Assembly (NCBI RefSeq): GCF_018350175.1
Contig: NC_058368.1
Span: 26,972,001 to 27,036,000 of the forward strand
Source: Felis catus
Taxonomy: Eukaryota
Length of the DNA stretch: 64,000 nt
Reading direction: 5' to 3'
Under the pieces are notes generated by a model. That model saw only the letters and a program-made list of their open reading frames with translations, did not search any database and was not told the DNA's origin. A program made the translations under genes and the position numbers. Below, piece by piece: positions 490-61,360 of this stretch. Positions within the stretch are counted from its first letter, which is position 1, and each line of letters starts with the position of its first letter.

Positions 490-667
490 TAGTCTCAAAA
501 TCTTAGCGTGAAATATTTAGTACCCTAGGAAAGCTAAATTAATGGTGAGTCAAAGTAATTAAGGCAAAGTAAATAATCTCCAAGGTTCTCATTCCCCGTG
601 AAACTAATTTCATATCTTATCCTTCATGTGTTAAAAATAGTTCTCTGCTAATTCAAGATGCCCGTGC
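490..667. other. Unassigned dispersed duplicated element, copy A (paralogous to 61190-61360)
   Basis: 529-626 aligns without gaps to 61230-61327 at 73/98 identity (hand count), including the exact 19-mer gcaaagtaaataatctcca; weaker similarity extends on both sides. Confidence 0.85.
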
Positions 668-1899
668 TCTGTGTTAGTGAAGTGCACTTCAGTTCTATTG
701 AAAGGATGCAGATTAGGGAGTTATTTTCAATTGGGCATTTTTTTTTTTTTAAAAAAGAGAGACACTCATTTTGGCACCACGAGAGTGTGAATCTCTTTGG
801 GTGAACTGAGAGTTGGATACAGCTGTAGCCGGGCGGATGATGGGCCAGCTAGCTTACGATGACTTGCAGCTGGGACAGCCTCTTCATCCTTCTAGTGAGA
901 ACTCTCAGTTCCCATCCTTCCATTTGATGATGAGATTAGTTTAACTCCTTTGCAGGATTTTGACTGGCCAGAGCTTGTCCTTGTCTGTGACTACACGCGT
1001 AGGAAGTAGATCTGGGTAGGTTTTCTACATGATGGGAACATTGGGTCTTGAACATAATTTGAGAGTTATTTGTCACCTGAAAATAATCAGGACATATAAA
1101 TAAGGGGACGCTTGTGAGCTTATGGGTTTGTAGACTCCAGTGTAACCAAGCTGATCTTTCTACATTTGAGCCATTCCGGTGATAATGCCCCATTGTCCCA
1201 GGGCCTGAGAACACATGGTACTTTGGAGTCAGTGCATGGCTATGATACTGTGGCTTCCTCAAGCTAATGAAACTGCTTCAGAATTTATTATTGTTACAGC
1301 GGCGGTCTTGATCAAATGTGAGAATTCTTTTCTCTACGATCGGAGAGTATTTTGGTTAGAACGAACAGAGGTGGTTGAAGAGATGTTGAGCAAGCAGTCC
1401 TCAGTTACCTACAGCTGAAATATGCCATCGTTATCTTCTTGCTCACCTTCAGAATTCCTCAGTTATCTTTTTGTCTTCAAAGAGATGCCTTAGCTCTTCA
1501 GCACATCATGGGCCTGTTCTTCCAGAGAAATGCAGTTTTGCTTTTAATATGTTTTGAGATGGCAACCTGGGAGTGGAATATGCAGTACTCTGCTTACATC
1601 ACAGAGTGGAGTCTGTATCTCGCCACACATCCATGCGGAAAAATGCGCATAATTAATAGAAGGAGAATCATATGTAAAGTGATTCTCTTATGTTTGATAT
1701 TTGGTTTTAGTGTCATAAGAACATTTCTGTGGACAGTGAAGTGTCCCTTTTGCTAATTTTTTATTTCTCTTTCTGAAAAAAATACCAGAATTAAGTTGAG
1801 CATAGGTGCGTGGCATGTATGGATAATATTTTTACTGTATGTGAAGCCATCATACTATGGACATCATGGCTTTTTAGTATTTTATCATAATCATTCCAT

Positions 1900-2030
1900 T
1901 TATAGAGTACCTAACAAAGTGCAAAGCATCAGCTCATTTTTTTGATCATCATGACTTCTGAATGAGCAGGGTAACCATTTATTATCCCTGTTTTGAAGGT
2001 GATGAAATTCAAATTTGGTGAAGTCAGTTT
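1900..2030 (-). mobile_element. MIR SINE fragment
   Basis: Degenerate MIR core (attatccctgttttgaaggtgatgaaatt) in reverse orientation. Confidence 0.55.
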
Positions 2031-2039
2031 GTTGGTAAT

Positions 2040-2460
2040 CCCTTCATTGATTTGTCCTTTATTTCACAAACTTTTACTGAGCGCTTCTCAATGTTTGACG
2101 GTTCTGAAGGTACAAAGATGAGATGGTCCCTGCCCTCAAGGATACTAGAAGAAATGGACAGGCACAGATAACACTGTGTGGCCGGTATTAAGTTGCAAAT
2201 AGCGTTCAACTTTCCCACAGCAGGGTGCGGTTCATTCTGGCAAGGGAGTTGAGGTACTTTTTCACAGAGATGAGAATTAAACTAGGCTCCAGAGGGGTTC
2301 TCCAGGTAGGGAAGGTCTCATCCAAAGCTGAGCCACAGAAAGATGGAAGAGCACAGCGTGCCCCAGGAGAGCTGTGTGAAGTGGCTGGAACATTGAGAAC
2401 AAACAAGCAGGTGAGATGAGGCTTGGAAAGGTCCCATAGCTTGTAAATGACAGAGCCAGG
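2040..2460 (-). mobile_element. L2 LINE 3' fragment
   Basis: ttcattgatt...caaacttttactgagcgcttc...atggtccctgccctcaagga...ggaaggtctcatccaaagctgag pattern of a reverse L2 3' end. Confidence 0.7.
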
Positions 2461-4169
2461 AAGGGGCGGGGTTTTCTGCTTCCTAGTGTGATGCTTGTCC
2501 TGTACATTAGGTTCTCTGTTGCTTATTTAGGTTTTCTTTCTTTTTTTTTTTCTTTCTGAATACATCACTGGCACCCTCTACACAAGTCATGTTCAAGACT
2601 ACGACAACTAGGGATTTCATTTGACAAGGTTATCTCATATGGCTAGAGGTGTAGCTTGTGTTTTAGTCAGTGTATGAATGTGTGTGCTCCTATGGATTAA
2701 GGTGAAGTGACTGGGGGCTGAGGCCCAGTGGTCTCAGTTAAATGTTCTGACAGGAGAAGAGCAAGTGCCTTTTTATCAGCCACAAACAGGTGTGTTTCTG
2801 CTGCCTGACCCCAGCCCTAGACTGGAGGTCCCCCAGGTTATGTAGATATGGCACTTGGCAATCTAAAGGCTTTAGTCATTATTTGGAAGGGGTTGGTTTT
2901 TTGAAGCTGTTGCTCTGGTTGGAAATGATTTTTTGTTCACAGCGCTGAGTAAATGCTAGAAATAATTGAAAGTGACTTGAAGAAGGAGAGTAAAGTGGAG
3001 GTAAGGCATATTAGCTGCCGGCTGATGTTACTGCTTGAAAGCAGGCAGTTTTGTTAGATTTTGTACACTGTATGTGGTGTAAAGAACAAACCTTTCCATT
3101 TTTTTTTTCTGAGAGCCATGATGTTATCTCAGTAATTGAAAATAATCTTCTAAAGTTGCTCTTTAACTAGATTTACACAATCCCCTTTCAAATCGGCTGT
3201 TATCTGCCCTTACATTTCACAGTAAATGTTGCTGTCTGCACAGCCCCTGCTAACAAGAAGATCAAGTGTAACTCTTTTCATGATTTGAAGTAAAGTGTTT
3301 CTATTGTAATTATCCTGGCTCCTGGTTGTGGTGTTAGAAGGGGGCTCCTCTCTTAGCTGGGTTTACGAGGAATACAAGGCGTTGTGTTCCAGCCGCGTTT
3401 CCTTTCACGAACATCTTAAGCAATTGTCTAACTTTCTCAATCATTTAGATTTTTTATGTTTAAAAATGTTTTCATGGATAGTTCATGGTGTGGTCTGGGA
3501 TTAAGGAGAGGTGGGTTTTGGGAATTTTTACATCTGCTCTCCAGGGTAAACTTGAGAGCCACTATATCTCCTGTTTATATCTTCACTGACCTCATTTTGG
3601 CAAAATTAGAATAAACGTTATGCCTAATAAGCTGCAATAGGCAGGTTTTAAATGGGTGTTTTATGACGGTGGTGACAGAGGTAAACAGTAAAATGTGTTA
3701 CTAGAGAATGTTGTGAAAAGCTGGAATCTTGTTTGAAATTCTTCAGCAACAGGATAAGTTCTCATATGTTTGGAGCACAGATTCTCTGAGTCTCATATAC
3801 TGTGATAATACATTTAACTGTCTACTCCTAGATTGTGTTCACATTTTATTTTTAAATTGTGATGTCATCCCCCTGGCATTATTGACTTAGAAAAGCATTT
3901 TGCTTATTGGAGGCTAGCACTTTTCAATAAAGTTTCCTTTAAATCATATTGCTAATTGCTTTCTCATGGAAGAGACCAACCAACAACCACGGAAGAATAA
4001 AAGGACATGAAGTCCTATTTAAATTAGAGTATCGAATCAACTAGTAGCATTTTGTTAACTGGTATTTCGGAAAGGAAGTCCTGAGGGTTGAATGAAGGAT
4101 GGGGTGAGGGAGGGAAGACTCCAACTGAGGTTAAATATGCTCTTCTTCTTCATGATGTTAGTTGGGGTG

Positions 4170-4295
4170 GTTAGATTAAGGCCCAAATCTCAATAATTGT
4201 ATGAGTCCTTTGAACACTTTAAACCTAACTTCACTTGGGTGCAAAATAAGAGGGTTGGATAAAATGACCTTCTAAGAGTCTCAACTGCTCTTATC
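4170..4295 (+). mobile_element. MIR3-like fragment
   Basis: gcaaaataagagggttggataaaatgaccttctaag resembles the MIR3 core/tail. Confidence 0.5.
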
Positions 4296-6151
4296 TGAAA
4301 TGATGAACTCTGTTAAATTTAAAGACTATTCAGTGCACCTATATATTAATAATAAAGAGTGGATTTATGAGCCATAGCTAAAAAACTACATGGTCTGCCT
4401 TTTATCTCTTGTATTGATCAACTCCTTTAATAGAGATAATTGAGAATGGACTGAATCACTTTGACAGCTTCTTAATTACATTAACAAAAATAAAAATATT
4501 TTTTGCATTGCCAAGTATTTTACATTGCATAAATATTTCATGTAATATTCCACAGGCTTCATAGTATGTGACACCTTTTTCCAAAAATATCTTCTGACCC
4601 AGGTATAATAGGTATTGTATTGTAAATAGTAAGAGAGTAAATACCTTGTCTAATTCCCACAGTTGGCTACCCGCGGCGTCTTTTTTCGGACTGTAGGATG
4701 CCAAGTTAGTGCTTGCCCCAGATGATGAACTTCCATCTGGTGAAAATGGACACCATGGGCTTACTCATGTCCGAGGCCAGAGATCCAAGTTGTGCTACTT
4801 TTCGTTCTACATCACGTTTTGTCTCGTTGAGTACTTACTAGAACTACTGCTGCTTAAAAGACACAGGAGTAATCATAGGGAATTAAATTCAAATTTCATC
4901 CCATGGTTAATGAAACGGGTGAGGAAGTTAATAAGGAAGAAAACTCAGATCTGATCATTAAAAGAAAGCCAATGTATCCACCCCCAATCATCTCAGGAAA
5001 CTGAGACTTGGATGACCTGAAGAACAAATAATCGCTACCACCTGCCCACCTCCTTGTCCTTCTCAACAGTAGGCTGTTGACAGCACAGGGAATAAAGGGA
5101 AAATTGGAGGGGGGAGGTTTGTGTGGAAGAAGTCAGGTGGCTACATCTGTAGCTTACATGGGTCCTAGAGCTCAGAACAGAGAGTAAGTGGTCGGGAAGT
5201 TTAAATTGTCCCGGAGCCATTTTAATTTATGAGTTTCTCACGTAACTTACAAGTTTCTCATCTAATGGGCATATTGCCAGAAGAATTCTGTAAACTTTTG
5301 CCCACACTGAGCTATCCTTCCAGATAGATCTCAGCAGTCATATCCATCCCAGGTAAACCCGGGCACATTAACTATTATTCTCAATTATTCTCAATATTGT
5401 TGCACTAATAAGTCCAGCTTTATTTGACATTAGCCGTACAAAAAGTAAAGGAGGAGGATGTGCATGAAATAGATTTGCAGAAGGCAGCATGACCTAGAGA
5501 AGGTCAGAAACACATGCTTTTATTTTATTGTTTTTGTTTCCCTTCCTGTTCTCTGGCCACTTGGAACACTGTGTCCAATTCTTTTGTAGAGGTTTGTAGT
5601 ATTTTACTAATTGAGCCTGGAAAGTGACACAGACTTGGCCTCAAGCGGTGAGAACATTGGGAATGCTTAAAAATGTTATATCGCATAGCAAGAATCCTGG
5701 GTGACTGAGCAGACACAAATGAGGAGCGAGAAGAGGTGCCCAGGTCCCTATAGTTGAAAAGCAAGCAGAGGCGGGTCCTAATGGAATGACTGACATTCAC
5801 CTGCAGGCAATCCAGTCTACTGCAGGGAACCGAGGAGACATCCAAGATGGTGGGCAGGGAGTTGAGATTTGTAACATGCTAACGCAGGGGTTTCTGTTAA
5901 AGTATGCAAACAGTTGTATATCGATTGTTTTCTTCACTGTGTGAAATGTGCCCTGAGAGTTGCTGCATTTATCTGAAGTAATTTCAAGGTGTTTGGAAAG
6001 GTGACAAGCACATATGGTGGTAAAGAAAGATGTAGGTTTTCCTATGTTTTAGGTACTTTCCATTAGGTTTCCTGTGAAAAGGTGGTTTCCTTCAGACTGA
6101 AAAGATTAAAAATTTTTTTTTTACTATTCTTAGTTCTGAGGAACTTGGCAT

Positions 6152-6176
6152 TTCATTCATTCATTCATTCATTCAT

Positions 6177-6215
<39 letters not shown>

Positions 6216-6218
6216 TTT
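6152..6218. repeat. (TTCA)n(TTTA)n compound tetranucleotide microsatellite
   Basis: Direct reading. Confidence 0.95.
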
Positions 6219-7404
6219 TCAACCTCAATTTCTCTATCTCAGAGGAAGATTGGGTCCCCCTGGGCATTTCTGCTCTGGACGTGTTCTTTCCTAGAAAGAA
6301 ACTGAGGGCAAGGAAGCAGGAAGACCCTCAGGCCTCTTTCTGTGACTTGGGCAACTCACTTAGACTCTTGGCAATCACAGCTTGACTCTCAAAGTAGTAG
6401 GAATTATGCTCGCCTTTTTCTGTGTCTCAGGAATTTGGGGAAAATAAACGAGATAATAGGACAAATATTTGAACTCTTTGTAGGGAAAAATGTTGTATAA
6501 TCATAATTGACATAATTCATACTGCCAGACCAGTAGTACTTGCTCCTTTGTTTTTTCTTTGTTAGCCCTCTGGAAAATTTGTGATCCTGAAAAGAAGAAC
6601 CCTCTGGCTCCCTGAACATTTTTTCTACAAATCTGGTGCATTTGAACTCTGTTTTGGGCGAAGGGTCTTTTTACTTTAAATTTATGTATAGTGCCTGTTT
6701 TTTGGGTTCCCTTGGAAATTTCCATTTTTGATCTAGCTTATGAAATACAAGCAAGAGAGCAGGTTAGAGGGAAGGAATGATGGCAGAGGCAGACAGTATG
6801 GATAGAGCCAGTGGAGTTACCAGGCTCTAAAGGAAACAAAGCGTCACAGTACTCGGATGTGCAGTGTGGGGCAAACATGCTGATGTCCTCCCCGGTTAGA
6901 GGGAGGGCTGGGGGAGCATGCACAGATAGCAGGCTATGGTGTGCAGTGAGCTTCCAGTCCTCTGTACACCCCAGGAGAGTTCAAAGGGACTATGTGGTAC
7001 TGACATTCATAATGGTCACTGGGGGCCATTGAAAGCAAATTACAATCATTTGCCTGTTTTAGTGTTGTAGAGCAGTGCACAATGGCTCATTTTAGGATTT
7101 GGTTTTTACAGGTTTTAAGTAAAATTTTAGCCTAAGGTGATAGTTTTCAGCTTTCTAGAAAGTACACTGAAACGACCCAGAATACTCTTTGATGATGATC
7201 TATGAAGTGTTTATTTTCATTATGTAGATGGCAAAAATAAACGAACAAACAAATAATTGAGCGGTGTTTTCACAGCACATCATTGTATGGAAGAGAGTCT
7301 TACGCTGTTGATGAGCAGATGCTTGTGCATCCAATGAGGTATTCCCAAAGCTGCTCAGGAATCTCCATCATTGTACATTTTATGAATGATTAAGCAATTC
7401 TATT

Positions 7405-7540
7405 CCTCTCCTGATAGAATGTAAGTTTTGTGAAGGTAGAGACTGTGTCACTCTTGCTCATAATTGTAGCTCCAGCGTCTAATATGGCACTCAACACATA
7501 GAAGATGGTCAATGACTATCTGTTGAGTGGATGGATGGAC
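7405..7540 (+). mobile_element. L2 LINE 3' end
   Basis: tagaatgtaagttttgtgaaggtagagactgtgtc...gtcaatgactatctgttgagtggatggatg. Confidence 0.75.
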
Positions 7541-8005
7541 ATGCCTAAAAATAATGTGGCTTGATTATCCTGTACCCTGGCTACATTCAGACACCATCAA
7601 AGTAGTTACCTTAAAGTGTTGCTGATATCTACACTGAAGAGACAATCCTCTTTATCATTCCAGGGTGATATAAAATGTCATATCATGTGGAAACCATTAA
7701 CCCTTACTTTCAGTGCTTATCAGATGATTCTCATGTGCAGTTTGGAATGTCCACCTCTGATTTAGAATTTTACAATTACTGGGAAGGGTAGTGGCTTCTC
7801 CATTATCTCCATCTCCATCACTTTTGTTAAAAATTTATTATCCTAGGCGCCCCTCTATCATTTTTTTTAAGTGAGACATTTTCCATATCAGGCATTGTAG
7901 AGACTATTTCAGCATAACAGGAGGGATTTAGAAGTTAAATGGGGGATAGATTTAACTTACCTCCAAGATTCTGTGATTCTTGGGATATATGTTTAATTAT
8001 ATAGA

Positions 8006-8235
8006 TTTTAATGTATTTTTTAATGTTTATTTATTTATTTTTGAGTGGGGCAGAGTGAGCATGCATGGGAGCAGGAGGAGGGGCAAAGAGAGAGGGAGAG
8101 AGAGAATCCTAAGAAGGCTCTTCACTGTCAGTGAGGAAACCGACTGGGGGCTCAAACCCATACGAACTGTGAGATCATGACCTGAGACGAAATCAAGGGT
8201 CGGACTCTCAACCAACTGACCCACCCAGGCACCCC
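8006..8235 (-). mobile_element. CAN-SINE (SINEC)
   Basis: Ends ccacccaggcacccc; AG-rich body and T-rich tail; TSD taattatata (7994-8003, 8236-8245). Confidence 0.95.
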
Positions 8236-8586
8236 TAATTATATATCTTTAGGCATATTATAGGGACTAATCAATTTCCAGCCCAGGTTTTCATCTACCT
8301 AACTTTCTGACACATGTGTTAACTTGATCCCATTGTATAGCCTTTTCTAGAACAGAGCTACCTTTCTCTGTTTCCTCGTCCTTGAGCAACTAAGGCCTCC
8401 TGTTCCTTGCTTTAGGTTTGTTCTCTAGTTAGCACCTTGATAACATATGAATTGCTAATCTTTGCTAATTGCTTGCTTTCCATGCCCCAAAAATCTGACT
8501 GAACTTTAAACAATCAACATCGTTATTTGGGACTATGCTTATTACTTTTGTTACTGTTTGGGTTTGTTATTTGTCACTCTTGCTCC

Positions 8587-8760
8587 TAACATTTATTGCA
8601 TACTAATCATCCTCTAAGAGTATTATAAATATCACTTCTCTTAATCATCTAATTTAAGCCCTATTACATAGGTACTATTTTATCCCTGTTTTACAGGCCA
8701 GAAACCCAGAGCTTACAAGTTCCTTCAGTAACTTGCCCAAAGCCACTCACGTAGTTAGCT
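8587..8760 (-). mobile_element. MIR SINE
   Basis: aacatttattgca...ggtactattttatccctgttttacagg...taacttgcccaaagccac. Confidence 0.75.
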
Positions 8761-9752
8761 TTAAATTAAGCTTTTTGAGATAATTATAGGTTCACTTGCA
8801 GTTATAAGAAATAATAGAGTTCTCTTGTATTTTTTACATAGTTTATCCACATGGGAGCGTCTTGCAAAACTGTAGTGCAATATCACAACTGGGGTACTGA
8901 CTGATACAGTTAATATAGAGAGTATTTCCACCACAGGGACGATCCTCCATTTTGCCCTATTCTGTTTTAAGCCCACACCCATCTCCTATCTTGCCCATCC
9001 TCATAGTGACCCCAGCGACCATCAACCTGCTTTCCAGATTCTATAATTTTGTCATTTCATGAGTGTTATATAAGTACCGTATGTGAGGGGTACCTGGGTG
9101 GCTCAGTAGGTTGAGTGTCTGACTTCGGCTCAGGTCATAATCTTGCAGTTCGTGAGTTTGAGCCCCACATCAGATTCACTGCTGTCAGCCTGTCAGTGCA
9201 GAGACTGTCCCCCTCTCTCTGCCCCTCCCACACTTATGCTCTCCCAAAAAATAAATTAAAAAAAAAATACAATATGTGGACTTCTGGGATTGGCTTTTTT
9301 TTCCATTCAGCATAATTCCCTGGAGATTCATCTAAGGTGGGTGTACCGACAGTTTGTTCCATTCTATTGTTAAGGAGTAGTCCAGCTTTTTAATAATTTT
9401 CCCGTCAGAGAACTTGTGGGTTGTTTCCAGTTTTTGACTACTATGTATAAAGTTGCTTTGGATGTTCATGTATAGGTTTTTTTTTGTGTTTGAACGCGTC
9501 CCAGGCTTTTATTTTTCTGGGATAAATCCTCAAGAGTACAATTGGTGGGTAGTTTTATGTTTAGCTTTATAAGAAACTACCAAACTGTTTTCCACACTGG
9601 TAGTACCATTTTGCATTCCCACCAGTAGTGTATGAGTGGTCTGGTGTCTCCACATCCTTGCCAGTATTTGGGTGCTGTCACTATTTTTTATTTAGCTACC
9701 TGATAGGTATCTAATGATATCTAGTTGCGGTTCTAATTTGCATTTTCCAGAT
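8761..9752 (-). mobile_element. L1MC-like LINE-1 3' region, interrupted by a SINE
   Basis: tttttgagataattataggttcacttgcagttataagaaataat...cttgcaaaactgtagtgcaatatcacaac; ccaaactgttttccacactggtagtaccattttgcattcccaccag. Confidence 0.85.
9087..9267 (+). mobile_element. CAN-SINE (SINEC) inside L1
   Basis: ggggtacctgggtggctcagtaggttgagtgtctgacttcggctcaggtcat head, CT tract, A tail. Confidence 0.95.
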
Positions 9753-9769
9753 TCTTTGCTGAGATGTCA

Positions 9770-10140
9770 TGCCTCTGTTCACAAGGCGGCATGGCTCAGG
9801 GCTGGATGGTTAGATGTCCGGTGGTTGGCGGTCAGTTGGAGTAATGAGGATGGCAGGCCACATGGCCTCTTGTCTCCCACCAGCCAGCAGGCCAGCTTGG
9901 TGACTGGGCAGAGTTCTGAGAGAGTAGGTCTTTTGAGACCTTGGACCTCGCACACCTTTACTTCCCCTGTGTTCTGTTACTCAAAACAAAGTCGTAAGGC
10001 CAACCTAGATTCAGGGAGTGGGGGAATAGATTCTGTCTACCTCTTGATGGGAGAAGCTACACAGTCAAATATCAAAGGGCATGGATACAGAGAGAAAAAG
10101 GGACTTGGGGGGGGGGGCATTTCTCAATTAATATACCATA
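9770..10140 (-). mobile_element. MLT1 (ERVL-MaLR) LTR, MLT1H/J-like
   Basis: aagtcgtaaggccaacctagattcagggagtgggggaatagattc...acctcttgatgggagaagctac...aaagggcatggatacag. Confidence 0.8.
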
Positions 10141-10589
10141 TTGGGCATCTGGTATAATTATCTTTAACCCATTTTTTTTTCCATTCATAACACACATTAA
10201 CCTTGGAAACAGTGTGCCTTAGTGAAAATATATTTGAGTGGAAGTTGGAAAATGGTGTGTGTAAGAAATTGGATTAAAGATGTCTAGAGCCCGGATATTT
10301 TCCAGCTTATTTACTAACATTTACCTTTAACATATCCAGGATTTGCTTCCACCAAAATCACAATGGGACAGTTATAGCTAGAGATTATATTTTCATCTTT
10401 TTTTTTCTAGTGTGTTCCATAGGCTAGTTTCTGCCCAGTCAGTTTCAGTTCAACTGCTCTGGACAGCCCCTAAATTCATTGAGCATATCCTTACTAAGTG
10501 TCAGGCACTCAAGCTAAAAAGGAGTAATGACACCTACTGAGGACTTCCAGTCCAGTAAGAGACATGGATGTACATAAAAATGGCAAGTG

Positions 10590-10848
10590 GGGGTGCCTGG
10601 GTGGCTCAGTCAGTTAAGCATCCCACTTTGGCTCAGGTCATGATCTCAAGGTTCCTGAGTTCGAGCCCCACATCGAACTGTCAGTTGCTACTGACAGTTG
10701 CTACTGTCAGCACAGAGCCCACTTGGGGTCCTCAACCTCAACCTCAACCTCCCTCAACCTCCTCAACCTCCCTCTCTCTGCCCTGCCCCTGCTGATTCCC
10801 CCCTACCCTGCTCTCAAAAACAAACAAACAAACAAACAAACAAACAAA
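10590..10848 (+). mobile_element. CAN-SINE with internal micro-duplications and (AAAC)n tail
   Basis: ggggtgcctgggtggctcagtcagttaagc head; TSD atg(g/a)caagtgg. Confidence 0.95.
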
Positions 10849-11029
10849 CCATGACAAGTGGTATGTTTTATCGCCTACATCATACACATGTTTTTTTTCT
10901 GGATCTCTGGCACTTATCAAGTGTTTCCTTTTTCTCACCGGTAATGACATGACCTCAACTCTTTTCACTTTCTCAGCCCCCAAGTGTGCAACCACATGCA
11001 CCTATAGGCTGCTTATAACCTTTTCTGTG

Positions 11030-11266
11030 AAACAAAACATAAGAGACTCTTCAATATAGAGAACAGAGGGTTACTGGAGGGGTTGTGGGGGGGGGGCGAT
11101 GGGCTAAATGGGTAAGGGGCATTAAGGAATCTACTCCTGAAATCATTGTTGCATTGTTGCATTGTTGCATTGATGCTAACTAATTTGGATGTTAGCATCC
11201 AATTTAGCATTTTAAATTATAAAATTAAAAAAATAAAAATAAAATGATATTCTATAGGAAAAAAAA
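11030..11266 (+). mobile_element. 5'-truncated felid/carnivore L1 3' end
   Basis: aaacataagagactctt...gatgggctaaatgggtaaggggcattaaggaatctactcctgaaatcattgttgca; A-rich tail; TSD aac(c/t)ttttctgtg. Confidence 0.85.
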
Positions 11267-11761
11267 GAACTTTTTCTGTGGACAGGTGTTTCATGTGATC
11301 TGGGCGAGTGACAGTATTCTAGCTGTGGTTTTCTAATTAGTGGGAGATTTCTCCATTTGCTAGTTAATTCTGCTTGGGCTGGCTGGAGGTAATACACACC
11401 ATAATTATTTTATAGCTTTGGTTGAAGGTCTGATGTTCTTTGTAACATGTTACTTCTTTTGCTAAGATTGCACCAAAAAGTAATCAACATGTCTTTCTGC
11501 CCTATTACCTACCTGACAACTTAGAAGACAATAGTGGATAACTTTATGATTTCATTTTTGTTGAAAATTTTGTAACAGGAGAAAATTCTGGGAGAATATA
11601 TATCAAATGTCAGGAGTGGTAATCTCTGGCTGGTAAGCTTAATGATTATTTGTTTTCTTATTTAGGCTTAATTGTGTTTTCTTATGCTGTAAAAATGTCT
11701 TATGTTGTAATTTTTTTTTTTTTTTAGTTTATATGAAAGAAATTTAGGGCCCACAGGCAAT

Positions 11762-11764
<3 letters not shown>

Positions 11765-11802
<38 letters not shown>
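11765..11802. repeat. (GA)n microsatellite
   Basis: Direct reading. Confidence 0.95.
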
Positions 11803-11803
<1 letters not shown>

Positions 11804-48429: not shown

Positions 48430-48501
48430 TTGACTTTTCATTTTCTTAATGCTATCTTTTGAGTAGCAGAACTTTTAATTTTGATGAGGCCAGTATATGA
48501 A

Positions 48502-48597
48502 TTTTTTTAATTAAGCTCTAGGCCCAATATGAGGTTTGAACACATGACCCAAGATCAAGAGTCACGTGCTCTATCAACTGAGCCAGCCAGGCACCCC
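48502..48597 (-). mobile_element. Short old-type CAN-SINE (tRNA-like head only)
   Basis: agatcaagagtcacgtgctctatcaactgagccagccaggcacccc; TSD cca(gt/ac)atatgaa. Confidence 0.85.
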
Positions 48598-49231: not shown

Positions 49232-49650
49232 TAAAGATTGTTTTAATGACTATAAATCCATATATTTTCTTACAAGTTTTAGAATCAGCTGTCAGTTGCC
49301 ACAAAAATTCTGCTGAGATTTTGATTGGGATGGCATTGAATCTATAGATCAACTTTGGGGAATCTGACAGCTTAATGTTATTTGGACATCCAGTTCATGA
49401 GTGTGCAACATGAAATATCTCTTCATTATGTAGGTCCTTAATATTCTCTAATATTTTGTGGTTTTCAATATGGAACTCTTGCATATTTTCTCATTATATT
49501 TATACCTGAGTATTAATGTTTTATGATGCCATTATGAGTGTTATTTCAAATTTCATTTCCAGTTATTCATCACTGGTACATACAGTTGATTTTTATGTAG
49601 TGACTGTCTATCATCTCACCTTGCTAAATGAATGTTTGAGTTACAGTAGT

Positions 49651-49678
49651 TGTGTGTGTGTGTGTGTGTGTGTGTGTG
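49651..49678. repeat. (TG)n microsatellite
   Basis: Direct reading. Confidence 0.9.
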
Positions 49679-49741
49679 AAGTAAAATGGTTTCTTTTTCT
49701 GTAAACAACATGCTTGTTTATAGAGAAAATCTTAAGGAACC

Positions 49742-52700
49742 GTGTACAGGGGTTCTCTTTTCTCCATCTCCTTGCCGATATTTATTATCTCTTATATTCC
49801 TGATCATAGCCATTCTAACAGGTGTAGGTGACATCTTATTGCGGCTTTGATGTGCATTTCCCTGATGATTAGTGATGCTGAGTGCCTTTTCATGTACCAA
49901 GCAAATTTTAGGACTTTTAAAACTTTCCATGGAAAAATGCCATTGGAATTTTGATAGAGATTACATTGAATCTGTAGAATGTATGAACATCTTAAGAGTA
50001 TTAATTCTTCCAGTCTGTGATCACAGAATTTCTTGGTTTTTGTCTTCTTTGATTTCTTTCATCAGTGTCTTATAGTTTTTAGTTTATAGATCTTTCATCT
50101 CCTAGGTTATATTTATTCCTAAGTATTTTATTATTTTTGATGCTATGGTAAGTGAGGTTGTTTTCTTAATTTCTTTCTGATACTTCATTGTTCATGTATA
50201 GAAATGCACAGAGTTTTTATATATTGATTATGTATCCTGAAACATAATTGAATTCATTTATTAATTCCTAATAGTTTTTTTTGGTAGAGTCTGTAGGGTT
50301 TTTGATATACAGTATAATGTCCTATCATCCATAAATAGAGACAGTTTTACTTCTTCCTTTGTAATTTGGATATCTTTTATCTCTTTCTCTTGCCTATTTG
50401 CTCTGGCTAGGACTTCCAGTACTGTGTTAAATAGAAGTGGCAAGAGTAGGCATCCTTGTGTTGTTCCTGACGTTAGAGGAAAAGTGTTCAGCTTTTCACC
50501 ATTGAGTGTAATGTTAGCTGCGAGCTCACCATATATGGCCTTTATTACGAAGGTACCTTCTGTTTATACTCAGTTTGTTGAGATTTTATTATGAATCTTG
50601 TCAGATGGTTTTATGTATCTGTTGAGAGAATCATATGATTTATTATCCTTTATTTTGTTAATGTGGTATATCACATCGATTGTTTAGTGGATATTGAAAC
50701 ATCCTTGCATTCCTGGAATAAATCCCACTTGATCATGGTATATGATTCTTTCAGTATTCAGTTTGCTGATATTTTTTGAGGCTTTTTGCATCTGTGTTCA
50801 TCAGACATATTGGCCTGTATTTTCTTTTATTGTGGTGTTTTTGTCTAGCTTTGGTATCAGGGTAATGCTGGCCTTTTTAAATGAGTTTGGAAATGTTCCC
50901 CCTGCTCCTGTTTTTTGGAAGAGTTTGAGAAGAATTAATGTTATTCTTTAAAGGTTTGGTAAAATCTACCAGTGAAACCATCTGATCCCGGACTTTTGTT
51001 TGCTGGGACGTTTTTCATTACTGAATCAATCTTCTTATTAGTAATTGGTCTGTTCAGATTTTCAGTTTCTTCATGATTCCGTTTTATTAGGTTGTATGTT
51101 TCTAGGAATTTATCCCTTTCTTCCCAATTTGTTGTCATATAATTGTACATAGTAGTCTCTTATAATCCTTTGTATTTGTATGATATCAGTTGTAATGTCT
51201 CCTGTTTCATTTCTAATTTTATTTGAGTACTTTCTTTTTTTCTTGGTGAGTCTAGCTAAGTTTTGTCTATTTTATCTTTTCAAAACACCAACTCTTCAAT
51301 TACTTTTAAATCTCCATTTCACTTATTTACACTCTGATCTTTGTTATATGCTTTCTTTTACTATTTTTGGGTTTAATTTGTTCTTCTTTCTAGTTCCTTG
51401 AAGTACAAAGTTAGATTTTTTTCTTGATATTTTTTTCTTTTTTTTTTTAACGTTTGTTCATTTTTGAGAGACAGAGACAGAACATGAATTGGGGAGGAGC
51501 AGAGAGAGAGGGAGACATAGAATCTGAAGCCAACACCAGGCTCCGAGATGTCAGCACAGAGCCTGATACAGGGCTCAAACTCACAGGCTGTGTGATCATG
51601 ACCTGAGCCAAAGTTGGATGCTTAACCAACTGAGCCACCCAGGTGCCCCGATTGAGATTTTTTTCTCTTAATGAAAGTGTTTATTGCTATAAACTTTTCT
51701 CTTAGAACTGTTTTGTTGCATCTTACAAGTTTGGGTATGTGTCTCAGTTTTTATTTATCTTAAGATTTTTTTATTTCTCCTTTGATTTCTTCTTTGATCT
51801 CTTGGTTGTTCACTAGCATCTTGTTTAGTCTCCACATATTTGTTCCAGTTTTCTTTTTAAACTGATTTCTAACTTCATACCATTGTGGTTGGAAAAGATG
51901 CTTGGCATGATTTCAGCCTTCTTGAATTAATTAAGACTTGCTTTGGCGCCTAATATATGTTCTGTCTTGGCAAATGTTCCATGTGTGCTTGAATGTATTT
52001 TGCCATTATTGGATGGTTGAAATGTTCTGGAAGTGTTAGGTCCATCTGATCTAATGTGTGGTTTCCTTGTTGATTTTCTGTCTGGTTGATCAATCTATTG
52101 TTGAAAAGGGGTATTGAAGTCTCCAACTATTACTGTATTTTTGTCTATTTTTCCCTAAACATCTGTTAATACTTGCTTTATATATCTAGATACTCCTCTC
52201 TTGGGTGCATAAATATTTACTAATGTTATATCCTCTTGGTGAATTGACCTCTTTATCATTATATAATGGCCTTTGTTTCTTTTTATAGTTTTTGGCTTAA
52301 AGTCTGTTTTGTCTGATAGAAGTATAGCTGTTCCAGCTTTCTTTTGGTTTTCATTTGCATAGAACATCTTTTTATATTACTTCACTTTTAGTTTATGTGT
52401 CCTTGAAGCTGAAATAAATCTTTCATAGGTGGCATATAGTTGAGTCTTGTTTTTTTGTTTTGTTTTGTTTTCTTTTCTTTTTTACTTTTTTCCATTGAGT
52501 CACTGTGTCTTTTAGTTGGAGAATTTAGTCCATTTGTATTTAAAATAGTTATTGATAGGTATAGACTTACTATTGCCATTTTGTTCATTGTTTTCTGATT
52601 GTTTTGTGATTCTTTTGTTCCTCTTATTCATCTTGTGCTCTCTTCCTTTGTGGATTTCTCTAGTGGTATGCTTTGATTCTTTTCTCTTTACCTTTTTTTT

Positions 52701-54800
52701 GTATCTACTTTAAGTATTTGCTTTGTGGTTTCCATGAGGCTTACATAAAATATGTCCTATTTAAAATAGTGTAATTTAAGCTGATGAGAACTTAACTTCA
52801 AATGCATGCAAATGCTCAACATTTTTCAACCCCTCCCCACATTTTGTATTTTTAGTATCAAAATTTATATCTTTATCTTGTGAATCCATAAGATACAATT
52901 TCTATAATTTTGTGTTTTATCTTGTGTAGCTCTGTCTTTGAGTTCACTGATCCTTTCTACCACTTGATCTGGCCTACTATTCAAGTTCTCAATTGAATTT
53001 TTCAGTTTAATTATTGTATTTTTCCACTGTGTGATTTCTATTTTGTACTTTTTAATATTTTCTATCTCTGTTGAAACTCTCACTTTGTCCATGAATTACT
53101 CTTCTGACTTGGTAAGCATTTTAATGCTTTTGTGTCTTAATCTTCATGCTAGAATTATAAGCGATTTACCCACCATCGTAACAGTATTTAGAGTATTGTA
53201 AATTTAACTAAATATTTATTTTTACCAGTCAGTTTTATACTTTTATATGTTTTCCTGTTACTAATTAGCATCCTTTTATTTCATCCTGTAGAACTTCCTT
53301 TAACGTTTCTTGTAAAAGTGACTTAGTGTTGTTGAATTCCTTCAGCTTTTGCTTGCCTAGAACACTCTTTTTATTTCTCCTTCAATTCTGAAGGATGGTG
53401 TTGCCAGGTAGAGGATTCTTGGTTGGCAGTTTTTTCTTGTTGTTGTTTGTTTAACATTAAATATATCATCTCACTCCCTCAGGGCCTACAAGACTTCTGA
53501 TGAAAAATCTTATAGTCTTACAAGGGTTCCCTTGTATGTAGCAGATTGTTTTTCTCTTAATGCTTTTCAGACTCTCTCCCTGTCTTTAACTTGTCAAAAT
53601 TTTAATTATAATGTGTCTTGGTGTGATCTCTCTGGATTCTTTTTATTTGGTAATTTCTGGGCTTTCTGGATCTGGGTGTCGATTTCTTTCCCCAAGTTGG
53701 GGGTATGTAGAGCCATTATTTTTCTGAATAAGCTTTCTGCTCATTTCTCTCTCCTTCTGGGACCCCTATAATGCATATGTTGATCTGTTTGATGGTATCC
53801 TATAAGTCCCTTACACTATCTTCACTTTTTTTTCATTCCTTTTGCCTTTTGCTCTACTAATTAGTTGAATTTCACCCCCTTGTCTTTGAGTTCACTGCTC
53901 CTTTCTTCCACTTGATCTGGTCTACTGGTGAACATCTCAGTTGAAGTTTTCAGTTTAATTACTGTATTTTTCAGCTCTGTGATTTCTGTCTCTGATATTT
54001 TCTGTCTCTGTTGAAACTCTCACTTTGTGCATGCATTACTTTTCTGACTTTGGTGAACATATTTATGACCACTATTTTGAATTCTGTCAGGTAAATCACT
54101 TATCTCTGTTTCATTAAGGTCTGTTTCTGGAGATTTACTTTATTCTTTTGTTTGGAACATATTTTTATATTTATTCAAGGTACTTGGCTCCTTGTGGTGG
54201 TTTCTGCGCATTAAATGAAGCATCCATCTCTCCTCGTCTTGATAGAGTGGTCTGTGGAAGAGGTGAATCTTGTCAATCAGCCTGGCCCAAGCTTCTTGTT
54301 ATCTCTTAAACTTTTGTAATTGTCCAAGCTACCTTCTTTGTTCTTAGTCACTCCCAGAAATTAAAGGTGTGCCAAGGCCTGTCAGTTTCTCAGAGGGGAA
54401 GACCGCATTCATTACTTAGATGGAGGCTGACTGAAAGCTGGACCCTCAGGCAGCAGCTTAGGTAAGTATATAATTAAGCCCTTTCTAGGGTCAAATTGGG
54501 AGATGAGTGTTTTTTCCCTGCTTCTTCTGCACTGGGTCCAAATGTATACTGCTAGGGAATAGGGGTGCTCCTGTGCCCTACTCCTACAAAAACCACTGTT
54601 TTGTTCGCTACAGTCCTGTAGGACTCATGAATGCAAGCCCCATTAGTTGTCAGAGTCCAGTGATCCAGGTTCTGTCCCTGAGAAATAGCCACAAAAGTTA
54701 GAGAGGGTATAAGACCTTTTAGGGAGATACAGGTGACATGGAGATGGCTAGAGGGAGAAGGTGAGGGATGTAATTGCCAGCTTTTCCAGTTCTATGGAGG
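49742..54800 (-). mobile_element. L1MA-like LINE-1, inner layer: decayed ORF2 (RT, EN), ORF1 and 5' UTR; 3' UTR missing
   Basis: ORF-track peptides [22 protein letters not shown]...[10 protein letters not shown] (RT), ENLNRPIT...[32 protein letters not shown]...GHYIMIKRSIHQEDITLVNIYAP (EN), LSITILNTNGLNSPTKRH (ORF2 start); many stops and frameshifts. Confidence 0.92.
51438..51649 (-). mobile_element. CAN-SINE (SINEC_Fc family)
   Basis: aactgagccacccaggtgcccc end; TSD ttga(t/g)attttt. Confidence 0.95.
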
Positions 54801-55105
54801 GTAGCCAGTTCCTTAGTTTTTAAAATTTACTTCTTTTCAAGCTTTTTTTTTTTAGCATAGATTGTTCATTTTAAACCATTCTTATTTTTTAAGATATGCT
54901 TTTCTTAAAGATACAGATTTTCCCCTAAGCACTCTAGTTAAGTTCACAAATTTTTTATATGTTATGTTTTTGTTATTGTAAAGTTATAAATATTTTCTAA
55001 TTTCTTTTATGATTTCTTTCTTAGACTCATAAACTATTTAAAATTGTGTTGCTTCATTTCTAAATAATTGGCTCAGATTCCCTAGACCTCTTGATGTTGA
55101 TTTCT

Positions 55106-55276
55106 GAGGCACCTGGGTGGCTCAGTCCATTGAGCATCTGACTCTTGATTTTGGCTCATGGTTCTGAGATCAAGTCCCTCATCAGGCTCTGTGCTGGGTG
55201 TTGAACTTGCTTAGGATTCTCTCCCTCTGCCCGCCCCTGCATGTGCACATACACACACTCTCTCTCACAAAACAAA
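55106..55276 (+). mobile_element. CAN-SINE (older subfamily)
   Basis: ggcacctgggtggctcagtcc head; TSD at(g/a)ttgatttct. Confidence 0.9.
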
Positions 55277-55496
55277 TATTGATTTCTAATTTAAATTCTT
55301 TTAAATATTTGTGTGTGTCATACATATTCTGCATGATATTTTAAAGTTTATTGAGATTTGTTTTATGTTCTAATTTGTGGTATGTTTTATTGAGTATTCT
55401 ATAAAGTACTTGACAAGCATGCATGTGTGAAATCTGCATTGTTTAGTATTCTATATATATTTTAAGTTAAATTTGGTTAACTGTTTTTCAAACTTT

Positions 55497-55525
55497 ATAT
55501 ATATATATATATATACACACACACT
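55497..55525. repeat. (TA)n(CA)n microsatellite
   Basis: Direct reading. Confidence 0.9.
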
Positions 55526-58434
55526 ATTTTTTTCTATATTTTTATCACCTCCTGAGATATTTTTATAAATGTCCAATTATGTGTGAATTTTTCTATTTCT
55601 CCCCTAATTTCTATCAGTTTTTTGCTTCATGTATATTAAAATTCTTAAGTGCATATATATTTGGATTGTTACTTTTTATTAATGAAGTGGTCCTCTAAGT
55701 CATACCCCTTTATTATTCTAAAATAACTCAATTTTTATCTAGTAATATTCATTTGCTTGAAGTACTTTGATATTTATATAGCCACATCAGCTTTCTTATG
55801 TTTCATATTACATGATATATATTTTTTCCATTCTTTTTTTCAACATGTGTTTTTACATCGAATGTGTATCATTTTTATAGAGCATGTAATCGTGTGCTTT
55901 CTTACCTAGTTTGATGATCTATGCCTTGTAATTTGATGATTTAGTCTTTGTATATTTAATGTAATTTTGGTGTTTGTGTTTGTGCAACCTTGGTATTTCG
56001 TTTTTATTTCTTCTTTTATGTTATTTTGTTCCTTCTTTCTTGACCTTTTTTAGTTGAATATTTTTAGTACCTCTTACATCCTTAACTTTTTATTTTTTTT
56101 TCTAAATGATAGAAAACTTATAATTGGAAGTCATACCTATTTCCCAGCTGCCTTTAGTTCCTCAAAATAAATGTTTCAGTAAATAATCATTGACAATGAA
56201 ACATTTACTGCTAAAGAGACATGAGATTAGAGAAACCAATTTATGATATGTTTATGAATACCTATAAATTAAATAATCAGATCACTTCCTGATAAACCAT
56301 AAATAGCTCTTTATTTTTCAAATCTATCATCTATCCATCTATCATATATCTGTCATCTCCATTCTTTTCTAATAGCTTTCATTTGTATCTCTTGAATTAT
56401 TTTTTAATACTTGCTCTAAAGATTACAATATTTAGTTTTATCTCACTGCAAACTACCTTCAGTTAATGCTATAAAGTGCATATAGAATGGAAGAATCTTG
56501 TAACAGTACCTTTCTGTTTTCATCCCTTTGCTTTTGTGCTATTGATGTCTCATATTTTTCTTCTAGATGTTTTAAAATGCAGAATACATTGCTATTGCTA
56601 TTATTGAAATGCTATTGCTTTGCATTAGTGAACTGACTTAAAAATCAAAGTAAAAAAGTAGGATTTTATATCTATCCATATATTAATTGTTTCTGTCTTT
56701 TGTTCTTTCCTGGAGATCTCAATATCCAATATATCTCAAATGATATCAGTACCATTTCTCTTTAGTCAAAAATTTTCCTTTAGTCTCTGTTGTTATGCAG
56801 ATCTACTATAAATGGCTTTTGCTTACCCAAAAGTATCTTCATTTTGTCTTCATTTTTGAAGTGAAATGTACTGAAGGCTATTTTTTTGCCAAGTACAGAA
56901 GTTTACATGTTTTCCTATCAGCACTCTAAAAATGTTATTCCATTGTCTCTTGGCCTTCATTATTTCTAACAGTGGATCTGTTATCATTCTCTTCTCTTCA
57001 ATTTTCTTCTCTGTCTCGGTGCGTGTATATAGGCTGTTTTTCATTTCTTTATATTTTCTTTTTTAGAGTGTAAATATGACTTTTCTTAAGCTGTGGTTTT
57101 CTTTTTATTTATACCGGACTTGCCATTGTTGTTTTTGACAAACTGTAAAATTTTTGGTCAGTGTTTTTTTCTGCAGATAGTTTTCTTGTTCCAGTATGTC
57201 TCTTCACTCCTCTGAGGTTTCCAGTTACAAGTATGGTAGACTACTTTGGGATTACCCTCCGTCTGCTGAGACTCTCTAATAATAACAAATGTATTTATTT
57301 CTGCTTCCTGTGCTTTTGTTTGGATGATTTCTGTTGACTTCATTTCCAGTTTATTGATTCCTTTTTGTGGACAGTTTGCTGTTAATTCCATCTATTAAAA
57401 GTTTTAATTTCAGGCACTGTGTTTTTCATTTTAGGATTTCCATGTGTCCTGTTTTTATAGTTTTTATACTTTTCCTGTTATTCCCTATCTAGTCACCTTT
57501 AGACCTCAATTCTCTTATAGCTTTTGTAACATCTTTATCATAATTCAAAGATTTTTTGTTTGCTAATTCCAACATCATAGTTTCCATTAGCCTGAATTTT
57601 CTCTTGACTATCACATTTTCTTATGTATGTTTATGTCTAATGGATTTTTATTGCGTACTACTAGCGTGGATATTTTGTAGATACTCTGCATTATGTTATT
57701 TTCTTCTGAATACTTCTGAGTTGTGTTGTAGCAGCCAGTTATGTTTCATAATAATCGTGTTAAACTTTTGGAGCTTGGTATTAGGCTTTGTTAGGTCTAT
57801 TTTGGTTTTGCCTTTAGTCCTAGGACAAATAGGACAAATAGTCCTATATCAATAGTTTTTCTTCTAACTTGTTGTGGCCCTTCTGTAGTGTCATTGGAAA
57901 GCCCAAGTTGTTTCTCAAGTTCCACGTAAGGTAGCAGGACTTGTACTGCAGATTTAGTTTCCTTTGAGATGAGCAACTATCAAAATGGTTCTTTCTGTGT
58001 TCCACTGGTTGGTTTTCTCCTGTGCACTTTGAAGTCTTGCCCCAGGTATGCACAATTAATAATCAGCCAAGAATTCATATGCAAATTATAGGTCTGGTGT
58101 TTTCCTTCTATGCATTTCTTGTTTCCTGGATCCCCATTCTCACCTGGGCACTTTTTAAAGTGCTCTATTAGCCTCACACAATGTCTTCAGAGTCCTAAGA
58201 TCAATAAGACCATGGATTGCTGCTTGAATTCTGTTTACACTACGCTAGGGGAAAAGATGTATAAAAGTAGATCTTACCGGGTGTGGTTTCTTTCTTTCAA
58301 AGGTCAGCTCTCCTCTTTGTTTGGTTTCTCTTCAGGGCCTTCAAAGAGTTGTTTTTATATTTTGTATAGTTTGTACTTATTTTCAGCAGGAGATTTAGTC
58401 TGAGAAAAGCTATTCCACCATTATTAGAAGTCAG

Positions 58435-58790
58435 ATCTTTTCTCAAGGTCTTGGTTGCTGAGTTTAAACCATTTATAATGATTTTAATTGCTGTTAAATC
58501 AGGACTGATTTCTGCCATCATATTCACATTTTATATTTACTGGGCTTTTTTTTTTCACTCTTCTTTTCTAATTTTCTTTGAATATATCAAATTTTCTTTT
58601 GTTTGAAAAATACTCACTATATTTTTATTCTTCAGGCGCTTTTCCCTAACTTGTTAACATATATTCTTCTTCATTTTTTTCTATTAGTATCTTAATTGTT
58701 GTCCATGATCTTCCCTATCAAGAAAAGTACAATACATATATTTTTGGTGATTTTGTTGTCATTTTGGTATTTTAGAATTTTAGTTCTTTG
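58435..58790 (-). mobile_element. Continuation of the outer old L1 (ORF2 start)
   Basis: ORF 58297-58527 peptide MAEISPDLTAIKIIINGLNSATK matches the L1 ORF2 N-terminus. Confidence 0.65.
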
Positions 58791-59120
58791 TTCTCAAGGG
58801 TATTTTCTTCAGGTGTAAGCATGGAGAAGGGCTACAACAGCCTGTTGTAGTTTACTGTTTTGCCATTAATTGCATATAGCTTCTTTTAAGATAAAATGTA
58901 TTCCTCTGGATACAGCATCATTGTTTTAAAAATGTAAAACTGAGACACTACTAAAGGAATGGCTTCTAAAGGAAGGCTGATATAGAATTTTAAACATTGT
59001 GTACTTTTTATAGTCGAGATTCTTTTTTGAACAAACATCAGGGGAAAACAAAAGAGAGTCTTCATTTAGAACTTAATGTAAATTCTCTTAACTCCTAGCA
59101 TATCACCTGTTTATTATACA

Positions 59121-59326
59121 TGTTTTGAATGTTTATTTATTTTGAGAGACAGATAGAGAGTGACTGGGGGAGGGGCTGAGAGAAGAGGGGAGAGAAAGAA
59201 TCTCAAGCATTCTCTGCACTCTCAGCACAAAGCCCAACAGGGAGTTCGAAACCACGAACTGTGAGATCGTGACCTGAGCCAAAACCAAGAGTCAGATGCT
59301 TACCCGACTGAGCCACCCAAGCACCC
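59121..59326 (-). mobile_element. CAN-SINE (SINEC)
   Basis: ccgactgagccacccaagcaccc end; TSD tgtttatta. Confidence 0.95.
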
Positions 59327-60084
59327 TTGTTTATTAAAAATTTTACCTTGAGTGTCTCAGCTACTGAGTAAAAATCTACTATTGAGAAATAATGTTGACA
59401 TATTCTATAGATCTCAGTTAAGAATAAGCTTATCTCTGGGCTTTCTGACAATAGAAGAAATATGTGTAACATTCCCAGAGAAGCCTAAAAGAGGTAACTG
59501 ATAATACTATCTAAAGCTGCCTGGATTTATGGTCCTGATGAGTGGTTGCTATGCAGGGGGACAACCACATTTCTGGTTACCCATAAATGAAGGGGATAAG
59601 TAAAAATAAAGTGAGTGGAATGAGAGAAAAAAGCTAAATTCTTGGGTGGAAAAATTATTCCATATTCTTTGTGTTTCTGTAGAGGAGAGTAAATTTGTAC
59701 ACTTTGCTTGAGGACGGAAGAATATGGAAGGAGCACTACCCATTTCACCGTGTCTTTTCATTCGTTCTCCTGATGGGTTTGAGGCTCCTTGAGAGATTTG
59801 TTAGGGATTAGGAATTGGGTATGCCCCCTACTTTGAAATCTCCCATCAGTAGTTTTCTAGCTATGCCAGTGAATAAGTTTAATCCTTCACTAGAATGGTA
59901 GCCAATCTTTTGACAGCTAATATAAAGCCATGTTCTGCAATCAGATTGAATAGTAAAACACTGATATCTTTATCCCCTACTTATTTGCATCATTTGCCTT
60001 CTTACTTTGTTTGGAACTTCAGAGTATCATTTGTCAGTCCTTTAAAATACAACTGTACCCAGTTTGTATGATGATGAATATGAT

Positions 60085-60393
60085 AACAGTATTTCAAAGC
60101 ACTAAAAAACAGTGCACACCATTCATACATGCAACAATTTGGATGGATCTAAAGGGAATTATGCTGAATGAGAAAAAAGACAATCTGAAGAAGTTATATA
60201 GTGTACGATTCTATTTATATAACATTCTTGAAATGATACAGCTATAGAGATGGAGAGTACATTAGTGGTGACCAGGAGACAGGGATGGACAGGGGAGCAG
60301 CATAGGAACGTTCCTTGGTGGGGAGAGAATTCTGCATCTTGATGGTAATGGTGGTTACATGAATTTATGCAGGGGAGAAGATTGCATGGAAAT

Positions 60394-60433
<40 letters not shown>

Positions 60434-60630
60434 GTGCATGGTAAAGTCAGTTAAGTCTGAAAAAGGCCTGTAATCTGTAGAAGAGTATTGTACCAATGTA
60501 GTTTTCTGGATTTGATGTTGTGTCATACATGTTACCGTTTGAGGGAAACTGAGCTAAAGGTACACAGAACTCTCTATTATTTTTATGATTTTCTGTGAGT
60601 TTTTTATTATTTCAAATAAAAGGTAAAAAC
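60085..60630 (+). mobile_element. L1MC-like 3' UTR with internal (CA)n at 60397-60432
   Basis: catgcaacaatttggatggatctaaagggaattatgctgaatg; ttctgcatcttgatggtaatggtggttacatgaatt; gggaaactgagctaaaggtacacagaactctct. Confidence 0.88.
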
Positions 60631-61189
60631 ACAAAAATATTGTGCAAACACTGTCAATTAATCTAAGTCCCTCCATACCTAAAAGCCAACAAGCAGGGGG
60701 ATGAGTTAGAACTTAACAAAGCTGGGCATGCTATGAGAGTCTTTGCTGTCATCTGTTTTGTCTCAGCTAAAATCGTGACACAAGTAATCTTAAAAACCCA
60801 AGAAAATATCCTAGTAAAGAATGAATTTCTAAAGTTTATTTATCTCTTCCTAAAGACTTTTTTTTTTTTTTTACACTCAAAAGCAGATTTGATTTCTGTC
60901 CTTACTGGATGAGATTGTTGGTGCCCTGCTTCCCGGTTTAAAATCCAAGACTTGCGAAACTGGAGCTTGTTTGTGAGCATAAAAATACATTTTTGTTTAC
61001 TGTTGGCTCTAATAAAATCAAGTGCTTTTTAAAAACAAGTGATTGTTTTGAGGGAAAGAAGTGCAGACTTAGGAACAATTAATGGTTTTGGTAATTATTA
61101 CTCACTGCACAGGTATTAACCAGTGTTCGCTCTTTAGCAGTAAGATACACTTCAAGCCCCTAAATATTCAAAACATGAACTAATTTTTC

Positions 61190-61360
61190 TTCATTATTGA
61201 AATCTCTGTATGCAAACCTAGTAGCATTTGAAAGCTAATCTCCCTATGTGCCAGAGTAATTACAGCAAAGTAAATAATCTCCAGTGTTCTTAGTCCCTAT
61301 AGAAATGGTTTAATATCTTATCTTTCAAAACTGGTTTTTGGCTCATTCAGAAAGCCTGAG
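61190..61360. other. Unassigned dispersed duplicated element, copy B (paralogous to 490-667)
   Basis: Same orientation as copy A; 61230-61327 is 73/98 identical to 529-626 without gaps. Confidence 0.85.

Follow-up and report, generated by a model that had tools for sequence, protein, structure and literature searches.

Two non-coding stretches 60.7 kb apart in the cat genome are probably fossil copies of one ancient miniature inverted-repeat transposon

Introduction

Ancient non-autonomous DNA transposons have been found inside mammalian enhancers. X6b_DNA and MER117, both located in the AS3_9 enhancer of wnt5a, are of therian or placental age and ~73-74% identical to their consensus sequences, and X6b_DNA, which carries a homeodomain (Msx1) site, was reported to be co-opted as part of the enhancer (Nishihara et al. 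2016, PMC5065162). Here we describe an element present twice within 64,000 nucleotides of the Felis catus genome (assembly GCF_018350175.1, contig NC_058368.1, positions 26,972,001 to 27,036,000 of the forward strand; this whole stretch is called the window, and coordinates count from its first letter), which is likewise probably an ancient non-autonomous DNA transposon. X6b_DNA and MER117 are named families for which conservation and activity were shown, whereas the cat element is a pair from one family 60.7 kb apart, and the comparison is by description only.

Description is also the basis on which the cat element resembles the non-autonomous Mariner and hAT repeats of Repbase, such as MER127, MER121, MamRep434, UCON39 and the X_DNA series (Kojima 2018, PMC5753468; Jurka 2012, PMC3500645). 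These repeats are old and short, with a median length of ~238 bp for the 266 conserved families. The decay of short terminal inverted repeats (TIRs) makes them difficult to classify, and such TIRs are described as notoriously hard to use for this purpose (PMC3500645). Short TIR elements without transposase, known as miniature inverted-repeat transposable elements (MITEs), have also been proposed as sources of enhancers at liver-specific open chromatin of Xenopus tropicalis (PMC12676858). Those are younger amphibian families supported by the assay for transposase-accessible chromatin (ATAC), and no mention of Forkhead was found in the Xenopus text.

Similar non-coding pairs near one gene, some of them without flank homology, are known from the duplicated shadow enhancers of mouse (PMC13345019). 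The mouse pairs are defined by activity, whereas the homologous unit in cat is bounded by TIRs. The paralogous conserved elements that derive from genome duplications (PMC3595034) are of a different kind from the cat pair.

Results and Discussion

An earlier note on this stretch had described an unassigned element of ~175 bp, present twice and sharing a gapless core. BLAST of the window against itself reproduced that core, aligning 529-626 with 61230-61327 at 73 of 98 positions without a gap (E 5e-11), and the exact 19-mer said to be common to both copies has exactly two occurrences in the window; a third match was absent even when up to three mismatches were allowed (chance expectation 0.05). 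The best local score was 122, compared to 36±3 with shuffled queries, and a profile built from the two copies matched the 64-kb window only at the two known places. The copies stand in the same orientation. Their local alignment (449-664 vs 61150-61358) comprises 208 columns at 68% identity with 3 gaps, corresponding to a Kimura two-parameter (K2P) distance of 0.43, and the ~7-nt gap followed by further downstream similarity is present as claimed. The length of ~175 bp was too short, since the local alignment already exceeds it and the units delimited by TIRs measure 287 nt in copy 1 (422..708, with true ends possibly ~5-7 nt further out) and 266 nt in copy 2 (61124..61389, ~21 nt shorter through internal gaps). 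Aligned globally between their TIRs, the two copies are identical at 168 of 266 positions, with 4 gaps.

We consider it quite probable that both stretches are fossil copies of one ~290-bp non-autonomous DNA transposon, a MITE, left by two separate insertions. What points to a MITE is the combination of TIRs at both ends (decayed, and tested post hoc), a short unit without a transposase frame, and unrelated flanks.

The arms were found by scoring the left flanks for similarity against the reverse-complemented right flanks, which gave two weak matches on one anti-diagonal. The left arm of copy 1 (422..451, plus strand) matches the right arm of copy 1 at 19/30 positions and that of copy 2 at 16/30, and the right arm of copy 1 (679..708, minus strand) matches the other three arms at 19/30, 17/30 and 18/30. 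In copy 2, the left arm (61124..61153, plus strand) matches the two right arms at 17/30 and 15/30, each with 8 further positions differing by transitions, and the right arm (61360..61389, minus strand) matches the other arms at 15-18/30; the register of this right arm, offset by 60681 from copy 1, was fixed by a direct alignment that predated notice of the arms. A two-arm scan score of 36/60 was equalled by 0 of 300 random segments and by 1 of 300 composition-matched shuffles. Scored jointly, the four arms reached 67/120, compared to 54.2±2.3 for block-shuffled sequence (maximum 63; 0 of 150 shuffles reached 67), and a control of the same arms in direct orientation, the arrangement that a long terminal repeat (LTR) would show, stayed at the background level of 54. 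The arm edges are sharp, with cross-identity of 21-23/40 per 10-nt block inside and 8-12/40 in the six blocks outside.

As controls we used 15 old-repeat pairs, taken from 18 matches in the window outside short interspersed elements (SINEs) after leaving out one shorter than 60 nt, the element itself and an 82-85% identical duplicate internal to an L1. The four-arm rule gave these pairs scores of 50-61, with 0 of 15 reaching 67. The earlier note had seen no TIR, and neither a word search for target-site duplications (TSDs) and TIRs in single copies nor a search for inverted repeats by 10-mers picked up the arms; the decayed 30-nt arms that bound both copies are visible only by joint four-arm scoring. 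Scoring the arms of two copies together can recover TIRs too worn to show in one copy.

Homology between the two loci ends at the arms. When 80 tiles of 200 nt from 1-8100 were compared to 56001-64000, only three tiles over the element and one over a SINE stood out, and three flank-versus-flank scores all fell within shuffled ranges. The 15 control pairs, which are L1-like and of comparable divergence (median identity 67%, K2P 0.44), still align, so a neutral block duplication of this age would have kept alignable flanks, and the moved unit must itself have been short. A short unit bounded by TIRs argues for transposition over segmental duplication. Of the three readings offered by the earlier note, the ancient repeat survives, now typed as a TIR DNA transposon, and the structured RNA finds no support, as described below. 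With inverted repeats at the limits of the unit and unrelated DNA on either side, a duplicated cis-regulatory module becomes superfluous as an account of the homology.

Within the element, conservation is uneven. K2P distance is 0.32 in the two best-kept cores, 529..626 in copy 1 and 61230..61327 in copy 2, compared to 0.67 outside them. The best 98 columns are identical at 76/98 against 63% overall (p 0.003), and this excess held in five alignment settings (p 0.0008-0.036), after removal of the arms (p 0.019) and against simulated uniform decay (p 0.003). Among control pairs, a core excess with p<0.05 appeared in 0 of 7 at 98-nt width and in 1 of 7 at 50 nt. A similar core excess could also arise from differences between subfamilies, from rates that vary locally or from gene conversion.

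Three kinds of motif stand in register within both cores; by consensus pattern they are of Forkhead/FOXA, homeodomain and GATA-like type. A palindromic hexamer of homeodomain type is kept at 556..561 and 61257..61262, followed by a minus-strand Forkhead/FOXA-type site inside the exact 19-mer (566..578 and 61267..61279). Two FOXA consensus patterns, with 14 and 12 occurrences across the window, match the Forkhead-type site of copy 1; 14 is also the count of the Forkhead 12-mer. Tandem GATA-like motifs lie on the minus strand at 613..621 in copy 1 and 61314..61323 in copy 2. Copy 2 bears out the GATA block of the earlier note with a canonical WGATAR, and copy 1 does not, having a 9-mer that departs from WGATAR and of which 2 of the 3 occurrences in the window fall in the copies. 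An AP-1-type site (546..552) is present in copy 1 only. Three shared in-register motifs, counted with a 15-motif panel that was picked after the motifs had been seen, compare to 11 in 3023 control columns (0.36 per 100; p 0.04).

The earlier note took blocky conservation with fixed spacing as a sign of constraint. Run length and gaps proved ordinary for old repeat pairs, making this a weak sign: within the local alignment, p was 0.03 for the 19-nt run and 0.20 for the best stretch of 50 nt, and among the 15 control pairs two had runs of at least 19 nt and two had gapless stretches of at least 100 nt, none reaching 111. The gap count was also unexceptional (probability of 3 or fewer gaps at the control rate, 0.36). 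A control set dominated by CAN-SINE copies, in which 20 of 71 pairs had runs of at least 19 nt and 3 of 71 were gapless over at least 111 nt, was dropped as non-independent. The contrast between the core and the rest of the TIR-bounded element gives a modest hint that the central ~98 nt may have been under constraint.

The better-kept core and the in-register motifs would also fit a rival account, in which a host regulatory element was duplicated locally very long ago, either as a cis-paralogous conserved non-coding element or as a shadow-enhancer pair, with only its constrained part still alignable and the inverted arms arising by chance. Among mouse shadow-enhancer sets, 31.9% show homology between enhancer bodies and 31.5% of such pairs lack flank homology (PMC13345019); homologous enhancer pairs of this sort, with unrelated flanks, are common in mouse, so that the functional reading too invokes a known type of event. 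Duplication leaves four in-register inverted arms unexplained, however, and must contend with flanks that share no homology and with identity, gap rate and longest run that equal those of the window's old repeat pairs. In PMC3595034, the paralogous conserved elements stem from genome-duplication blocks, and the word "tandem" is absent from its text. We regard duplication of a host element as unlikely.

Nor do the copies look like pieces of another kind of old interspersed repeat, for example an internal fragment of a long interspersed element (LINE), an LTR or an unclassified repeat of Eutr or MamRep type, decaying neutrally. Local identity of 68%, K2P of 0.43 and the gap rate are indeed the same as in the L1-like pairs of the window. 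Yet both copies begin and end at the same inverted arms, they lack a B-box and have neither a poly-A signal nor an A-tail in common, direct terminal repeats are at background, and neither copy matches the L1, L2, MIR or SINE copies of the window, which makes fragments of this kind quite unlikely. A SINE, LINE or LTR retroelement was rejected on the same features, since the copies show no B-box head, no A-rich or microsatellite tail and no direct terminal repeats above background.

Structured non-coding RNA fared worse, as did an exon that was duplicated or has decayed, and both are highly improbable. In principle the palindromic ends could form a long hairpin. No Rfam family matched either core, the 4 and 18 sub-threshold matches in the 600-nt regions around the copies miss the cores, and both strands of both copies folded more weakly than the mean of their shuffles (z +0.84 to +1.27), with folds spanning 466-662 and 61168-61356 and the arms lying outside them. 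For an exon, one minus-strand frame shows a few synonymous-looking changes (p 0.07). Six frames, each with 4 or more stops, gave no codon-position signal (best p 0.07), none of the 24 stop-free frames over the copies contained a Pfam family at cut-off, the 38-aa frame of copy 2 had no match in 1.84 billion proteins, and no pair of splice sites turned up close to either of the copies. With frames, codon signal, splice sites and protein matches all negative, a coding exon or protein fossil was rejected. A pattern scan of viral contigs returned 0 loci, and 3 loci from a scan of metagenome contigs have unrelated flanks and were set aside as chance. A search of sequencing runs gave 24 rows, 18 from one organism and 6 metagenome-labelled RNA runs whose share tracks library size; we draw nothing from them on conservation, expression or copy number, and do not count the three rows of small share as evidence.

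Returning to the MITE, short non-coding TIR units of class II depend for their movement on transposase supplied in trans by an autonomous relative, and every copy accordingly marks one insertion. The ~30-nt arms would have been bound by a transposase of this origin, and insertion at two unrelated sites would have been independent or the result of one short local hop. We infer the mechanism of transposition, the age and the gene context of the element. End-to-end K2P distance is 0.52 (0.41-0.66), rising to 0.67 outside the core. At the carnivore ancestral-repeat rate of 2.0e-9 substitutions per site per year, taken from dog (PMC1525190), the whole element would date to roughly 130 million years (Myr; 103-164), and its non-core part to roughly 165 Myr, before the placental radiation. 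At this age, orthologous copies should exist across placentals and perhaps in marsupials. The proposed history is that transposition took place ~100-165 Myr ago in an early mammal, that both copies have been immobile since, and that the central ~98 nt with its Forkhead, homeodomain and GATA-like sites may have evolved more slowly than the rest.

The target sites give mixed signals on the superfamily. The TSD of piggyBac and Kolobok elements is TTAA, and that of hAT elements is 8 bp long. TTAA is exact at one of the four ends, with 1-2 mismatches at the remaining ends, and the best 8-bp candidates match at 5/8, at several offsets, as by chance. TA, given as the Mariner TSD for UCON39 (PMC5753468), stands 5 nt outside the arm at two of the four ends, and CA is found in its place at the remaining two, in one case only if a slip of 2 nt is allowed. 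We lean slightly toward Tc1/mariner as the superfamily. The earlier statement that neither copy shows a poly-A tail or a clear TSD holds for both.

Several results weigh against an ancient MITE. The TIR test was designed after a hint had been seen, with search windows that were not chosen blind; a 20-nt window gives a four-arm p of only 0.013, and one control pair scored 61 (z 3.8 on 12 shuffles). Between the left arms of the two copies just 11/30 positions are identical where ~18 would be expected, with 14 of the 19 differences being transitions. No clean duplication of 2-9 nt was found at matching offsets in both copies. The control pairs used for core excess are local alignments, biased toward uniform identity, which flatters the contrast with the element. 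The probability of finding two copies within 64 kb is 3.5e-4 if the family numbers 1000 and 0.03 if it numbers 10,000, the two-copy profile found no third copy in the window, and no named consensus was seen, although no search of a repeat library was made. Since two copies are improbable for a rare family, their proximity suggests an abundant family, a local hop or retention by selection. Local hopping is a habit of DNA transposons. For scale, four ancient conserved families number 164-2815 copies in human, 13-62% of them in conserved regions (PMC3500645).

With these points weighed, an origin as a MITE turns the unassigned element into an ordinary object, an old repeat very likely masked by standard repeat libraries, and it probably belongs to an ancient repeat family that is already catalogued. 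If Dfam lacked the family, the pair would represent a further ancient family of mammalian DNA transposons.

On present function, the motif content of the core leaves it conceivable, at somewhat under even chances, that at least one copy now acts as a FOX-dependent enhancer element through exaptation; that both copies are inert is the somewhat likelier state. If exapted, a copy would have parallels in X6b_DNA, in MER117 and in the MITEs of Xenopus liver. A core constrained and active in both copies would provide a compact test case for the idea that redundant FOX-dependent enhancers of one gene can stem from transposons. The furthest extension is very doubtful, namely an uncatalogued MITE of therian age carrying a Forkhead, homeodomain and GATA module, of which both copies in the 5' part of ENOX1 were selectively retained as shadow enhancers as their arms decayed. 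If a transposed module had been kept twice in this way, enhancer redundancy would have been born by transposition.

ENOX1 enters through the genomic setting. The ~230-bp SINE copies in the window are presumably of carnivore type. On cat chromosome A1, the interval from CAB39L to SUGT1 includes TSC22D1, SERP2, SMIM2, LACC1, CCDC122, ENOX1 and DNAJC15 (PMC10969784). Interpolation with human coordinates probably places the window within ENOX1, in its large 5' introns. The window yielded no identifiable ENOX1 exon and contains no CpG island, and among its 143 stop-free frames of at least 72 aa the sole Pfam match above cut-off was the reverse-transcriptase remnant of an L1, with no host coding exon. 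A plus-strand excess of T over A (skew 0.12) fits the intronic placement, but is inflated by antisense L1. Five neighbouring gene names are absent from one supplement of PMC9004415. A literature search found no element of this kind described at ENOX1; not being sequence-based, it cannot show that the element is unpublished. ENOX1 has been reported in tumour vasculature and stroma (PMC5363632), which is no evidence for the element itself.

Some further features lie close to the copies or their controls. An exact 12-nt inverted repeat (803-814 / 900-911) is located ~100 bp downstream of copy 1. The control pair with the elevated four-arm score of 61 (9252-9335 vs 60139-60221) adjoins a SINE tail. 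An alternating purine-pyrimidine microsatellite at 61462-61525, ~70 bp after copy 2, is the source of the highest CpG ratio in the window and could form Z-DNA.

Elsewhere in the window, the L1 reverse-transcriptase remnant at 50264-50563 (minus strand) is decayed and antisense to the plus strand. A direct duplicate of ~190 nt, 82-85% identical, lies inside an old L1-like stretch, its two parts (52933-53126 and 53881-54067) standing 950 bp apart. The segment 37520-37900 is unique and apparently has more CpG than the sequence around it; it contains a Forkhead-type 12-mer (37601) and a stop-free frame of 126 aa without a Pfam match, and may be either an old SINE or a conserved element. Rfam over the whole window gave a single match, tRNA-like and far from both copies (48521-48592, minus strand), which barely exceeds the gathering score and is probably the head of a SINE.

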